Assembly: GCA_963662655.2 (NCBI GenBank)
Contig: CAXXTU010000002.1
Location: 3,104,001 to 3,168,000, forward strand
Direction of reading: 5' to 3'
Origin: Candidatus Cloacimonadales bacterium
GTDB taxonomy: Bacteria; Cloacimonadota; Cloacimonadia; Cloacimonadales; JAIOQZ01
Length of the DNA stretch: 64,000 bases
The position numbers are program-made. Below are positions 33,001-42,000 of the stretch, one piece after another. Positions within the stretch are counted from its first letter, which is position 1; each line of letters starts with the position of its first letter.

Positions 33001-36000
33001 CACTTCGATCGCCACGTCCATCAGTTCGTTGATTGATTTGGTTACGAATTGCTCGTGCTTGAGAGCGATCTCGAAGATTTCCTCCGCCGACTCGAAATCA
33101 ACGGTCGGTTTTTCTATCTTGTCGAGGATTACGCGTCCACCACGTTCATTGAGGTAGTTGTAGAATTTCATGGTATGGAAGTGTTCTTCCTGCGCCTGTA
33201 CGATAAAGAAGTTTTCGAAGCCCGAAAGGTTCATGGATGCGAACCAGGCAGCCATGGAGAAGTATAAGTATTCAGAGTACAGCTCCTTGTTGATCTGTAC
33301 ATTGATTGCGTCTTGCAGTTTTTCGGAAATCATGGTTCCTCCTTGTGTTTCCTTCTATTGTCTTTAACACATTTCTTTGAACATGTTACGATCTGATTTC
33401 ATTTATTTGCTTACGGATTATTTCTTTCATCGCATCCAGGTCTTCCTGGTCGGGAATGTATTGAAGACGGTGCATGTCCATCATGTTGAATCCGCACGAT
33501 TCCAGGACGTCGTGCACCAGTCCGATGCTCTGCCCGCCCCAGCCGTAGGAGCCGAAGGCAAGTCCGTAACGGTCCTTCGGTGCGAGTCCCTTCATGTAGG
33601 TGAGGAACGCGGCGACCGTGGGCAGCATGTTGTTGTTGAGCGTGGGTGATCCGACGCAGATGTATTTCGCGGTTGTCAGGTGCGTCATGATGTCGGAGAT
33701 ATGGTTGTGCTGAAGGTTACACATGCAGATATGGATACCCATATCTGCGAACACTGCCTGAATGGCCTTCGCCATCATTTCGGTAGATTTCCACATCGTA
33801 TCGTAGATAATCAAAGCTTTTTCTTCCGTCTCGTTCGCCGACCATTTTTTGTATTTCTCGATAATCTCCGGTATGTATTTCCGCCAGATGATTCCGTGGC
33901 TTGGGCATACCGTGTCGATATCCAGGGTTCCAACCACTTCGAGCGCTTTCTGCACCTGCTTGCCGTAGGGCAGCACGATGTTAGCGTAGTACTTCATGGC
34001 TTCTTCCATGATGATGTTGAACGGGTATTCGTCGTCGAATCGTTCGGAGGACGCGATGTGCTGACCGAAAGCGTCATTAGAGAAGATGATTTTCTCCTCG
34101 GGGCAGTAGGATACCATGTTATCCGGCCAGTGTACCATCGGAGTCTGTACGAAGTTGAGGGTGCGTTTGCCGAGGTTGAGCGTGTCTCCGGTTTTAACGG
34201 TGACGAAATCCCAGTCCTGCTTGAAATGCTTCGGAATGCCTTCAACGCCCTTGGGCGATGCGTATATCTTTGCGTTGGGAGCTTTTTTCATGATCATGGG
34301 AAGGGAGCTGGAGTGATCCATCTCGATGTGGTTCTGGACGATGATATCGATCTTGGATGGGTCGATGATGCTACTGATGCGAGCAATGAGCTCGTCCGCG
34401 AGATAGTATTTCACATTGTCGATCAGGGTAATCTTTTCATCGATAATCAGATACGCGTTGTATGTGGAGCCTCGTTGCGTCAGGTAGCCGTGGAAGTTCC
34501 GCAGGTCCCAATCGACAACGCCAACCCAGTATACGCCTTCTTTAATCTGTATAGCCTTCATTCAATTATCTCCTTTATCACTTTTGACAATTCGGGCAGA
34601 AATATGATGAGCGTCCCGCTTGTTTGATGCGCTCAATCGGTGTACCGCAGTGGCATTTCTTTTTCATATAAACTCGTAGAAAATCCTGGAACTCGCCTGT
34701 CTTGTCCTCTACACTTCGAAAATCCGATATGCTGGTTCCATTTTTCTCAATTGCTTCTTCAAGTATCGTACGGATCGAATCTGTCAAGTGTTCAATTTCC
34801 CTTTCGCTCAGGCTGTTTCCTGGGCGAGCAGGGTGAATCCCGCTTCGGTGAAGCGCTTCACAAGCATAGATATTACCGATTCCAGCAATGAATTTCTGGT
34901 TCATCAGCAGGTTTTTCACCGGAGCTTTCCTTGACGAAAGTACGCCATGCAAGTATATCTTGTCAAACGATTTGCTGAGAGGCTCCACGCCAAGATCGCT
35001 GATTCGGCCTATGGTGTCGCGTTTTCCATGAATCGAGACAAAGCCGAATGTCCGCGGATCGATGAAGAGCAGAAGTTTACCGCTCCCGAGATGAAAGGCT
35101 GCGCGAACATGGGTCGCGTCGGCAGGGAACTCTCCTGCGAAAACAAGCTTTCCTGTCATGCCGAGGTGAACCACGATCACCGCTCCCGTCGAGATGTGCA
35201 TCAGGATGTATTTCCCGCGACGTTCGACGGATTCAATCTTGCCCATCACCGATTCGGAAGTGAACTCCCGAACCGTTCCCGGGCGGAACTCGTCCAGCTT
35301 CACAACGTTGGATTCGACAACCGTATTGCGCAATCCACGCACGATCGTTTCGACTTCCGGCAATTCTGGCATCTATCTTAATCCCTTATCTAGCAGTATT
35401 ATTCATCTATTTTGTCTCGGAGAAATCACCGAGTCTCAATACAATATATCGAGATGAATCATTTATAACAAGTAAAATATTTCACGGTGTGAAATTATTT
35501 ATTGAATATTGTTCAAGATAAAGAATTCGTCTGTTCTATCTGGCTGATATAATACAATTTCCGCGTTGAAAAATCCTGAGTCGGGAAGATAGATTAGGCG
35601 GAAATTGTTTTAGGATGGATTTCCCGATTGGAGGAATCCGGGTTTTCCAGCCATCCACGCGGCGGGGCGGCGTGTGCGCTTCGCGCACGATCGATGTACA
35701 TCGATCAGGAAGCCGGTCGGCCAGCAGGCTCAGGACTACAATCAGCGCGAAGTTATCGAGCAATATTCAGACAAGCACATGCAGGCTTCCTACGCCGCCC
35801 CGCCGCTGGGTGGGCAGAAAACTTCGAGATAGCTGCTCGCGAATATAGCAAGAGAGGGGAAATGTAAAGCTGCAAATTCAGGGGCGTTACTCCGATGCGG
35901 AAAGAGCAATAATGCGATAGAAGATTCGATCATTGGTCGTCTGCATATGATAAGATGTATCCGTCGTTTCGACAAGATCGAACCATAGAGTGTTATCCAG

Positions 36001-39000: not shown

Positions 39001-42000
39001 TAGGAAATGATGATCATGCGACCCTGATCTTCAAGGGGAATGTAGCGATCCGTGGGAAGATTGATGAAGTGATTGCGGTATATCTCGTCGAACTCTCGAC
39101 TGATTCCGGAACGGGTTGTTGTTTGCGGGTTGATCGTCGCCGGTCCGTTGAACTGAATCTCGATATCTATAGAAGTTTTGATGTAAAGTCGTTCTTCCAG
39201 CGGATTGTAGTAAAACGGCTGAAAAGAGACCGCTACGCCTCGGTAGTCCCTGAGAATGTAGGGATCGGAAAGCGTTGCGATTTCCTGCGGTGTGGGATTC
39301 CGGTAGAAATCGTCAAAAACGTACGGGACGGTACTCGGATCGATGTTCCTGGAAAAATGTCCCTTGGATGGCGCGACGCGAAGATCGACAAAGGTCTCCT
39401 CGCTTCCGGTAACAACGATATCCGGCCTGAGATTACCGGGAATGATGACGCTTCTCACGACTTTTGGAAGCTGGGGCATACCCTTGTCCATGATCAGGCC
39501 TTCTCCGTCGAGGTGGGGAAGCGCCCAAGTCTGGCCATCGATATCCACCTCATTGTATGAGAAGGAACCCAATTGCATGCGCAACGTGAGAGGGTTCGTA
39601 TTTAGAACCTGCACATCTAATTGATTATCATTGAGTTGCACATCAATTGCAGCAAGGCCGACAACGGCTAATAATAAGATTATTGTAAACCTTGTATACA
39701 TGGGAGGCTCCTTCTTTGCTATTTCATGAATTTTCCATGCAAACCGTAAACAGCATTGACAGAAACGTCAATATATTTCTGAAAAAATTTGAAAATGCAT
39801 AATTTTATGGTGCTATTTACCCACGCAGAAATCGCTGAAAATCCTGTTCAGAAGCTCTTCGGAGGTGATTTTCCCAATGATTTCTTCCAGAGCCAGGCTG
39901 GCCTCCTTGAGATCGAAGGCGACGAACTCCGCGCCCAATTGATCCTGCATGGCAATGTGAGCCTTCCCCAGGGAATCGAAAGCGCGAGATGCCGCGGCAA
40001 TCTGGCGTGCGTTGGTGAGAATACCGGAGTGGAGATCGTTCTGAGAGATGCGGATATCCTCAAGGAGCTTGTTTTTTAGCTCGTCGAGGCCATCCGGTTC
40101 GGTTGCTGAGCATACGACATAGCCCTTCTCGCGGAAGTTGGCAATCTGTGAATCGGTGAGGAGGTCGGCCTTGTTGATCACCTTGATGACATTGTTTTGC
40201 TGCGAAATTTCCTCGAGATGGTGCAATTCATCGGGGGAGATATCCGCTTCGGAAATGAGCAGAATGCGATCCGCCTGGCCGATCATCCGCTGGGAGCGAT
40301 CGATACCGATTTTCTCGATCTCGTCCGGCGTTTCCCGGATACCTGCGGTGTCGAACAATCTGAGGAGGTAGCCCTCGATCGCGACCGCTTCTTCGAGGTA
40401 GTCGCGGGTGGTTCCCGGGTGCGGTGTGACGATCGCGCGTTCGGTCTGCAGGAACGCGTTGAAAATGCTCGATTTTCCTACGTTTGGCGCGCCGACGAGC
40501 GCGATCTTGAGTCCTTCCCGGAGGATAACGCCTTCCTGCCCGGTGAGGATCAGCTCGTCGAGCGCTTGAAGAAGCGATTCGGTCTCATCTTTGACAACGC
40601 TCCAGTCCGTATCGGCGAGATCCTGATCGCTCAGATCGATTTCGATTTCCATTTGCATCCTGATTTGCGTGATACGATGTAGCAGTCCTTCAATGCGATG
40701 CTGCAAGCTGCCTTCCATCTGCTCCAGAGCGACGGCCTGCGATTGCCTGGTCTGCGCTTGAATGAGATCGTTGACGGCTTCCGCTCCGGTGAGATCGATC
40801 CGGCCGTTCAGGAAGGCGCGCTGGGTGAATTCACCCGCTTCCGCCTGCCGAGCGTGGCGCAGAACGATGGTCATGATCTGGGAAACGAGGAATGGATTGC
40901 CGTGACAGGATATCTCGGCGACATCCTCTCCCGTGTAGGTGTGCGGAGCCCTGAAGATCGTGACAAGCGCCTGATCGATCCGGCGTTCGTTATCGTAGAT
41001 GTCCCCCAGATGGGCGCTATGAGACGGGCAATCCTGAAGCTGCTTGCGTGTTTTAACGATGCGAGAGGCAATATCGATCGCTTCTGGTCCGCTGATACGT
41101 ATTACGGAAATACCGCCGCTACCCTTGGGGGTCGTTTCGGCAGCTATGGTATCGAATAGGTTCTGGTTATTGCTCATGGCTAGAGGAACGTCTTGATTTT
41201 ATCGAATATCTGCCGGGGCATGATTCCCAGCATGTCTTTGAGTTGCTCCACTTTTCCGTGCGTGACAAACTCGTCGGGGATGCCGAACGAATGTACCGTA
41301 ACACCGGTTCCGCCCATAAACGTTGATACTGCCTCGCCAAATCCGCCTGTGAGAGCATTGTCCTCGATGGTGACGATGTGCTTGACTCTGGTTGCCAGAT
41401 CGTTCAGGAGGCCGGTGTCGAGCGGTTTGACGAATCTAGCATTGATGAGCCAGGGCGTGCTATTCTCGTTTTCAGTGAAAAGCTTCGCGACTTCCTCGCC
41501 GTCTAGGACGCCTTTGCCCGTACCGATGATGGCTATATTACTACCTTCCTGCAGAACTTCCCATTTCCCCATCTTGATTACGGGATGTTCCGATTTGCAA
41601 TATCGTGCGCTTCCGCGTGGATAGCGGATTGCGATGGGCCCATCGTTGTAAGAAATGGCGTAGTCCATCATCGCTTCCATCTCTTCAGCACAGCATGGGG
41701 CGAGAATTTGGAGGTTGGGTATCAAGCGTAGGAACGAAAGATCGAAGACGCCGTGGTGGGTTGCGCCGTCGTCTCCAACGAGTCCCGCGCGGTCGAGACA
41801 GAACACGACCGGGAGTTTCTGGAGCGCGATGTCATGGATCACCTGGTCGATCGCACGTTGCAGGAACGTGGAGTAGATCGCCACAAACGGTTTGATTCCG
41901 CGAACGGCGAGTCCGCCGGCAAATGTGACGGCGTGCTGTTCGGCGATACCGACATCGAAGAAGCGATCGGGGTATTGCTTGGCGAAATCGGTGAGTCCTG

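Follow-up and report, generated by a model that had tools for sequence, protein, structure and literature searches.

Two neighboring genes on the minus strand of the window (the whole stretch of 64,000 nucleotides analyzed here) encode secreted proteins that end in a small module with no name in the family libraries, which raises the question of what this module does. The survey's finding had described it as a second class of T9SS sorting signal and had named anchoring or docking as an alternative. The first gene (35887..37521) encodes a 544-amino-acid (aa) protein of the peptidyl-arginine/agmatine deiminase family (PAD_porph, residues 85 to 361, E = 1.6e-32), in which the last conserved strand of a 71-aa tail (35896..36108) finishes 5 residues ahead of the stop; the second (37554..39701) encodes a gingipain-like C25 peptidase of 715 aa (Propeptide_C25, Peptidase_C25 at E = 1.4e-57, and Peptidase_C25_C), in which propeptide, catalytic domain, and Ig domain are followed by a 73-aa tail (37557..37775). 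Both begin with a signal-peptide-like N-terminus of about 18 aa (37468..37521 and 39648..39701, respectively, minus strand, boundaries approximate), recognized by reading the sequence together with our own heuristic. The two genes were found where the survey had placed them, and Por_Secre_tail is absent from both; it is carried by three genes farther right in the window, among them a C25 peptidase paralogue (58427..62020, plus strand; Peptidase_C25) that ends in a type A CTD instead of the tail (Por_Secre_tail, residues 1114 to 1193). The passenger of the tail-bearing C25 peptidase is 45% identical to a type A paralogue. Promoter and terminator scans returned chance-level results only, and no RNA holder was listed. 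Our preferred answer, to which we assign a probability of roughly one-half, is that the tail represents an uncatalogued family of fn3 domains whose members, all without strand G, act as docking tags for secreted enzymes and adhesins.

The fn3-like character of the tail is clear from its predicted structure. The C25 peptidase copy, which was used for modeling, gave a confident model (pLDDT of 92.9) with six strands, A-B-C-C'-E-F. It matches 3mpc_B with a Z score of 10.5 and an rmsd of 1.5 over 73 aligned residues, covering residues 3 to 79 of that 96-residue chain, and the fn3 sandwich A-B-E / C'-C-F is present. Cloacimonadota and Verrucomicrobiota models have six strands each and aligned to 3mpc residues 3 to 79 and 3 to 80 of 96. 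As modeled, the tail is thus composed of fn3 strands A to F without G, unlike the true fn3 repeats of the same genome, which run on into a G strand. The 50 fold matches listed were mostly fn3 domains, and no solved T9SS CTD was among them. Basic residues often stand directly ahead of the tail's last strand, where complete repeats have T-Y.

An HMM seeded with the two window tails and iterated converged at 45 open reading frames, and with a trimmed profile (E < 1e-5) 45 of the 2,760 protein ends in this genome matched, with 0 matches in each of three shuffled controls, in agreement with the number of about 45 proteins reported earlier. Separately, a scan of genome contigs with a single tail returned 2 loci. 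Together with one 93-aa fragment and two internal copies, the 45 terminal cases make up a set of 48 carriers, of which 44 pass a rough and permissive signal-peptide rule; 718 of the 2,714 other genes pass it as well. The claim that the tail and the type A CTD are mutually exclusive held up, since a genome-trained type A HMM took 198 proteins and none of these has the tail, although complete fn3 repeats are present on many of them. The kinship of the two groups was likewise confirmed: for 35 of the 48 carriers there is a type A protein with a shared passenger, and tail passengers paralogous to type A cargo reach 3,240 aa. The family is indeed uncatalogued, as no Pfam or NCBIfam family reached its cutoff in any of 42 tails scanned; fn3 matched 12 of the 42, none at the Pfam cutoff (best E = 2.7e-4), and these scans gave no tail match to the type A (TIGR04183 / PF18962, 0 of 42) or type B (TIGR04131 / PF13585) CTD families.

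Some details of the earlier description required revision. A small lipoprotein (C2:2484198) counted among the carriers proved to be an ordinary fn3 protein whose G strand is complete, and most of the internal copies are complete fn3 repeats, with only two that do lack G. Nor does the tail always end the protein: 21 of 45 stop within 5 residues of the domain, and the other 24 carry at least 6 residues beyond it. The N-terminal domain of two adjoining FGE-sulfatase proteins was considered as a relative of the tail and rejected, as it did not align to the tail profile (3%).

The tail takes the place of the type A CTD, or on one passenger of a dockerin, in the same slot. This can be followed across 57 deiminase loci, of which 4 end in the tail and 48 match the type A HMM, with 3 more judged type A by eye, 1 cut off, and 1 ending in a dockerin-like repeat read by eye. 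At these loci the linker before the tail is almost nil (74 to 79 residues after the passenger, versus at least 94 for most type A proteins), which fits an uncleaved module.

The use of the tail across Cloacimonadota proposed in the survey's finding was borne out, with matches in 147 of 151 genomes, 108 of them strong. The SprA model matches 143 of the 151 genomes, including 107 of the 108 with strong hits and 36 of the 43 with weak hits, a class assigned by best E-value alone; loci were read in five SprA-less genomes, where 43 matches in 30 loci included none within 60 aa of the stop. In Verrucomicrobiota the family also appears at the ends of secreted proteins, in 48 of 121 genomes and with at least 82 tail proteins in one of them, and here there are no SprA or type A CTD matches in any of the 121 genomes and no PorV-family match over the cutoff in any of five tail-rich ones. 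Among these Verrucomicrobiota tails 25 of 27 end within 5 residues, and internal copies account for 3 of 26 new matches and 5 of 36 matches in the sets examined. Elsewhere, the tail was found in one genome titled Zixiibacteriota and at 1 of 30 Bacteroidota loci examined, and Atlas matches, all under 0.9, are leads only. When 1.84 billion representatives were searched, the output consisted largely of multi-fn3 arrays, in which 1,553 of 1,892 repeats continue into a G-strand-like motif, and because these arrays dominate, the search yields no family size.

Several comparisons point to a relationship between the tails of the two phyla. An HMM built from Verrucomicrobiota alone recovered 17 domains without G among its 18 matches in this genome, the Cloacimonadota and Verrucomicrobiota profiles matched each other at 97.8% (E = 1e-12), and a tree placed 44 tails on one side of a branch and 34 complete fn3 domains on the other (SH-aLRT of 94, branch not starred). 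Two independent truncations are nevertheless conceivable because that branch is not starred and because the Cloacimonadota profile gives complete fn3 domains a higher score (91) than it gives Verrucomicrobiota tails (57).

These results divide the survey's main claim. What stands is a separate C-terminal module, absent from the catalogues, with which the type A CTD is mutually exclusive and interchangeable; what does not is a T9SS-specific role, given the 48 Verrucomicrobiota genomes without SprA that encode it. Because the same domain is common in bacteria without a T9SS, a docking tag is more likely than a T9SS signal, and the anchoring or docking alternative is now the better fit. The tail would act in the manner of a dockerin, probably remaining uncleaved and being completed in trans by a partner strand. 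After Sec export it would fold with an open slot along strand F, which a strand from a surface-anchored or coexported partner would fill, and the filled slot would hold the uncleaved cargo at the cell surface much as cohesin scaffolds hold dockerins. The route across the outer membrane would then depend on the partner or on the host cell; in Cloacimonadota it would probably be the T9SS, possibly with the tail protein as passenger of a CTD-bearing carrier, and in Verrucomicrobiota a secretin system or another. Going by which genes co-occur, SprA fits best as the exporter within Cloacimonadota, and no single exporter accounts for all tail carriers. Against docking we count the lack of a partner in the searches described below, the terminal position of most copies, as expected for a signal read from the end, and the near-perfect link to SprA within Cloacimonadota. 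A tentative and rather doubtful extension of the docking proposal is a split-fn3 system common to the PVC and FCB groups, in which a surface scaffold or outer-membrane receptor would donate the G strand independently of the T9SS.

A partner for the tail was sought in this genome in several ways. No free G-strand-like donor was recognized and no scaffold of unexplained repeats was found; there are two cohesin-like domains, each single and neither part of a multi-cohesin scaffold, and a single-sequence search for dockerins gave no match. Within two genes on each side of the 48 carriers there is no recurring neighbor, including no barrel-like shuttle. When 549 envelope candidates were compared with 1.52 of the 2.22 Mb of a Verrucomicrobiota genome that has tails, 91 matched; the envelope members among them resemble general machinery (BamA-, Skp-, SurA-, TolC-, and OmpA-like proteins, a secretin, and a GldG-like ABC set, named by reading without a family scan), and no obvious candidate for a dedicated receptor was among the 91.

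The strongest rival to docking, which we nonetheless consider unlikely, holds that the tail is a further class of T9SS C-terminal signal that SprA and a PorV-family shuttle would read directly in Cloacimonadota, with the Verrucomicrobiota relatives representing a separate use or origin. The SprA link and the type A paralogues of the passengers favor it, as do two genomes (G065 and G140) that have tails and SprA with no secretin or PilC/GspF match; this genome holds SprA, PorU over the cutoff, another gene resembling PorU, and nine loci of the PorV family, and several unrelated CTD classes are already described for the T9SS (PMC10202324). However, the Verrucomicrobiota distribution, the scarcity of tails in Bacteroidota, the retention of SprA in most weak-hit genomes, and the internal copies all argue against such a signal, and the tail has six predicted strands versus the seven of the solved CTDs treated in PMC11285876. 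A family without SprA had been offered as a tail-less control, and SprA is absent there, but secretin and PilC/GspF are missing as well (0 of 6 each), so that this control does not single out the T9SS. No PorV-family paralogue clearly follows the tail: of the eight that have the size of PorV, seven find their best-hit orthologues also in genomes where tail matches are weak or absent. Among those of its matches that were cut out, the eighth was seen in two tail-rich genomes only and not in a third; it seemingly belongs to a sugar-uptake locus and may yet be a dedicated paralogue.

It is less probable still that the tail is a six-stranded fn3 derivative, stable by itself, with a surface glycan or its own copies as ligand and with export decided elsewhere. 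Such a domain could be stable without a partner because the monomer models are of high confidence without G, and the searches for a protein partner gave none; fn3 is a common accessory module of secreted bacterial enzymes, and a conserved basic-aromatic patch on the last strand could bind a polyanion. This explanation does not account for the absence of the tail from all type A proteins when so many carry complete fn3 domains, or for how paralogues of T9SS cargo without a CTD leave the periplasm, and a self-assembled mesh would have almost no anchor because, by our own pattern, lipobox-like matches are limited to a single terminal carrier. Most doubtful is the idea that the tail directs proteins to a type IV filament machine with a secretin (T2SS or type IV pilus). 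Such a role would account for the exclusion of the T9SS tag in cells with both routes, and it could draw on the type IV pilus-like operon and second secretin locus of this genome and on the beta-strand complementation described for type IV filament tips (PMC12918778). Secretins are present in 118 of the 121 genomes of Verrucomicrobiota and in 141 of the 151 of Cloacimonadota, with none in the control family, but they are so common that this co-occurrence says little. Against the idea, 4 of the 108 strong-hit Cloacimonadota genomes (88 to 95% complete) yield no match to a secretin even when E is relaxed to 0.1, eight lack canonical PilC, and 81 of 151 Bacteroidota genomes have a secretin although tails are almost absent there. 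As a route, the type IV pilus operon was set aside, its PilC and secretin being missing from several tail-rich genomes.

With 45 tails beside 198 type A CTDs, roughly one in five of the tagged secreted proteins of this genome carries the tail. If the tails are docking or sorting tags, they offer a handle on how Verrucomicrobiota, which are major degraders of complex polysaccharides and have no T9SS, display their enzymes, and they could help to predict which proteins reach the surface in two phyla with few cultured members; the question can be addressed in culturable Verrucomicrobiota. Should the split-fn3 system exist, dozens of enzymes and adhesins per genome would be exported or displayed in a cellulosome-like manner by strand complementation, with or without a T9SS, and tail and donor would form a natural two-part protein connector.

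Among known systems, bacterial fn3 domains (PF00041; PDB 3mpc and 5g56) share strands A to F with the tail, as the superposition above indicates, while the tail lacks strand G, falls below the Pfam cutoff, and is single and mostly terminal instead of arrayed. Chaperone-usher pili are built by donor-strand complementation. The C-terminal strand of PilY1/PilC takes part in strand complementation with PilK/PilX (PMC12918778). In these systems a beta-sandwich or sheet that is missing a strand receives it from a second chain, and the same is proposed here for the tail by analogy, with the difference that the tail cargo would be the acceptor. The T9SS type A CTD (TIGR04183, PF18962; the CTDs of RgpB, PorZ, and RemZ) resembles the tail as a C-terminal beta-sandwich of about 75 aa on signal-peptide proteins with the same passengers and slot, but the tail has no sequence match to it, six fn3-type predicted strands instead of seven, and almost no linker, and it also occurs internally and in genomes without SprA. 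Type B (TIGR04131, PF13585; PorP/SprF shuttles) and type C (ChiA) CTDs provide a precedent for a genome that uses another class of tag in addition to type A, and the type B CTD is described as probably uncleaved and surface-bound (PMC10202324; PMC12618676), but the tail matches neither family and no shuttle gene recurs beside its carriers. The dockerin-cohesin system proposed for the cloacimonadotal "Ca. Stygibacter" differs in fold from the fn3-like tail, and this genome yielded no cognate receptor of that kind. In that organism, enzymes including a C25 peptidase have dockerins at their ends, while the cohesins sit on a scaffoldin with a CTD (PMC8542988). The likeness to the tail lies in a small terminal module that replaces the CTD on such enzymes, as on the one deiminase relative with a dockerin-like end, with a CTD-bearing scaffold as the proposed holder.

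Two minus-strand genes of the window lie where the survey's finding placed them: 35887-37521 encodes a deiminase-family protein of 544 aa, and 37554-39701 a C25 peptidase of 715 aa. Both products end in an fn3-like module (the tail) and lack the T9SS type A C-terminal sorting domain (CTD), which we found on three other window genes at 53820-62020. When an HMM seeded with the last 80 residues of these two proteins was iterated against every ORF end, it settled on 45 proteins. A type A HMM built by the same procedure recovered 198, and the two sets share no member, in agreement with the mutual exclusion proposed earlier. 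At E<1e-5, a trimmed profile (42 sequences) matched 45 of the 2,760 protein ends; no type A protein was among them, and none of three shuffles yielded a match. From the first set of 45, a lipoprotein of 136 aa was removed because its last strand is complete; one protein with a 64-residue extension joined the set. Passengers, as had been claimed, are common to both classes: of 48 carriers (the 45 tails, a 93-aa fragment, and two internal copies), 35 share theirs with a type A protein (E<=1e-10). Between paired paralogues, similarity generally stops at the start of the tail or of the CTD linker.

The deiminase passenger illustrates this exchange. Of 57 loci that code for relatives of the window protein, 48 match the type A HMM and 4 end in the tail, all 4 titled Cloacimonadota or Cloacimonadales; three others look like type A by eye, one is cut off, and one ends in what we take, also by eye, to be a dockerin-like repeat. 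The tail follows this passenger almost directly, and type A CTDs mostly come with a linker. Two tail-bearing genes on the window's contig (C2) seem to be split into two ORFs (C2:2432968-2435033 and C2:898026-901399), so that the fragment bearing the tail lacks a signal peptide. The smallest natural carriers (~155 aa; loci L044, L048, and L052) consist of nothing but a signal peptide, a short region of S-x-N-Y repeats, and the tail, making them handy test substrates. Elsewhere in the window, a plus-strand cluster (~8182-26833) with three ketosynthases, an aromatic amino acid lyase, an AMP-binding enzyme, B12 radical SAM proteins, and glycosyltransferases is similar to pigment clusters of the aryl polyene or flexirubin type.

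The feature holds up as real, and it is uncatalogued. As the survey had reported, no Pfam or NCBIfam model reached its cut-off on the tails (fn3 appeared weakly in 12 of 42), and we found no paper describing a G-less fn3 tail in the open-access literature, as judged from listings, which is not proof of absence. The predicted structure (pLDDT 92.9) has six strands, and all 73 residues align (Z 10.5, rmsd 1.5) to positions 3-79 of 3mpc_B, an fn3 chain of 96 residues, with Foldseek in agreement; the modeled fold is therefore fn3 strands A-F with G absent, consistent with the earlier description of a domain ending at its last conserved strand. In the type A proteins of this genome, complete fn3 repeats run past strand F into a G strand; the tails do not, and G is also missing from the 93-aa fragment and the two internal copies. 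The stop falls within 5 residues of strand F in 21 of 45 tails. An Arg occurs within 9 residues in 20 of the 24 with longer extensions (expected fraction 0.42 from other protein ends; p 4e-5), as it does in 7 of 9 extensions in other Cloacimonadota loci, suggesting putative trimming by an Arg-specific protease. At C2:3622816-3625086 (-), two FGE-sulfatase proteins with signal peptides, encoded immediately downstream of a tail gene, start with a different small beta-domain. Inspected by eye, this domain likewise stops at an F-like strand; it gave no alignment with the tail profile.

The tail is used across Cloacimonadota, as had been proposed, with profile matches in 147 of 151 genomes; by best E-value, 108 of the 151 are strong (<=1e-16) and 43 weak or empty. 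In the best 30 loci, one from the genome studied here, 32 of 32 matches end <=25 residues from a stop, although these are top hits and so biased to typical copies. Outside the phylum, in 30 loci drawn from 121 Verrucomicrobiota genomes, the Cloacimonadota profile alone found two G-less domains in a terminal position, the remaining matches being mostly complete fn3. Iteration on the fetched stretches gave 30 tails, whose profile matches 48 of the 121 genomes; of 26 new matches, 23 are terminal and 3 lie internally. The tails of both phyla look like one family, given a profile-profile comparison of 97.8%, a six-stranded model for the Verrucomicrobiota tail, a Verrucomicrobiota-only HMM for which 17 of 18 matches in the Cloacimonadales genome are G-less domains, and a tree with 44 of 44 tails on one side of a branch and 34 complete fn3 domains opposite (SH-aLRT 94; a quick tree of 78 columns and subsampled rows, the branch not starred). 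Against this, the Cloacimonadota profile is nearer to complete fn3 than to Verrucomicrobiota tails (scores of 91 and 57); those tails, in turn, are nearer to the Cloacimonadota tails than to complete fn3 from Verrucomicrobiota (29). Three terminal copies occur in one genome titled Zixiibacteriota. In Bacteroidota, 48 of 151 genomes match at 1e-7, but a G-less tail in terminal position is present in only 1 of 30 loci read, and its contig is short and perhaps mis-binned. Across 50 mixed genomes, the Verrucomicrobiota profile matched 4 of 5 Verrucomicrobiota; among the other 45 it matched one, weakly.

This distribution weakens the survey's reading of the tail as a second class of direct T9SS signal, which we now consider unlikely. 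SprA is present in 107 of 108 strong Cloacimonadota genomes, but also in 36 of 43 weak or empty ones, and the claim is too narrow for the 48 Verrucomicrobiota genomes with tails, because SprA and TIGR04183 were each matched in 0 of 121 (named control genomes matched neither; the SprA model matched 143 of 151 Cloacimonadota). PorV-family searches gave no match over cut-off in 5 tail-rich Verrucomicrobiota genomes. The earlier control, a SprA-less family, stands insofar as its six closed genomes have matches only in fn3 arrays of giant proteins (43 matches in 30 loci of five genomes, none near a stop; tandem matches ~88 residues apart in the sixth), but it cannot separate T9SS from other exporters, since secretin and PilC/GspF were also found in 0 of 6. 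These genomes (family f12: G002, G005, G008, G017, G023, and G064; 1.5-1.6 Mb) encode several 10,000-11,000-aa proteins with fn3-like repeats. The T9SS set of the genome studied here comprises SprA, one PorU over cut-off, a second PorU-like gene, and nine PorV-family loci. The second PorU-like gene (1,665 aa) is followed directly by a PorV-family gene (C2:3508862-3514881, +); 7 of 8 PorV-size paralogues have best-hit orthologues in no- or weak-match genomes. Just right of the window, C2:3169815-3190859 (-) encodes a type A CTD protein of 7,014 aa that contains long tandem repeats.

That the tail is a stand-alone binding or self-association module seems to us more doubtful still. A secretin-route signal is the least credible option: secretins occur in 118 of 121 Verrucomicrobiota genomes, but four strong Cloacimonadota genomes (88-95% complete) gave no secretin match, eight lack canonical PilC, and 81 of 151 Bacteroidota genomes have secretins. 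A type IV pilus-like operon at C2:2168437-2186633 (-) encodes three ~600-aa PilX-like proteins without Pfam match and an 890-aa invasin-repeat lipoprotein; PilY1 was not seen in it. As neither SprA nor secretins account for every carrier, it is simplest to read the tail as something other than the signal of a single translocon.

We favor, with a probability of about 0.5, the tail as a docking tag, based on an incomplete fold kept across phyla, its place in the slot of CTDs and dockerins, the absence of a cleavage-type linker, and the internal copies. A strand from a partner would take the place of G, and the bound tail may then retain cargo at the cell surface; our searches did not find this partner. 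A 2,545-aa type A protein of largely complete fn3 repeats (C2:1257458-1265095, +), adjoining a 984-aa ORF that looks like its detached N-terminal part, is a possible strand-swapping scaffold. The T9SS CTD classes and shuttles available for comparison are treated in PMC10202324, PMC11285876, PMC10994853, and PMC12618676. Strand complementation as a docking mode has been shown for pilus tips, according to PMC12918778, and PMC8542988 describes enzymes of Ca. Stygibacter (Cloacimonadota) that end in dockerins together with a CTD-bearing scaffoldin with cohesins, an arrangement that provides a precedent for docking within the phylum.
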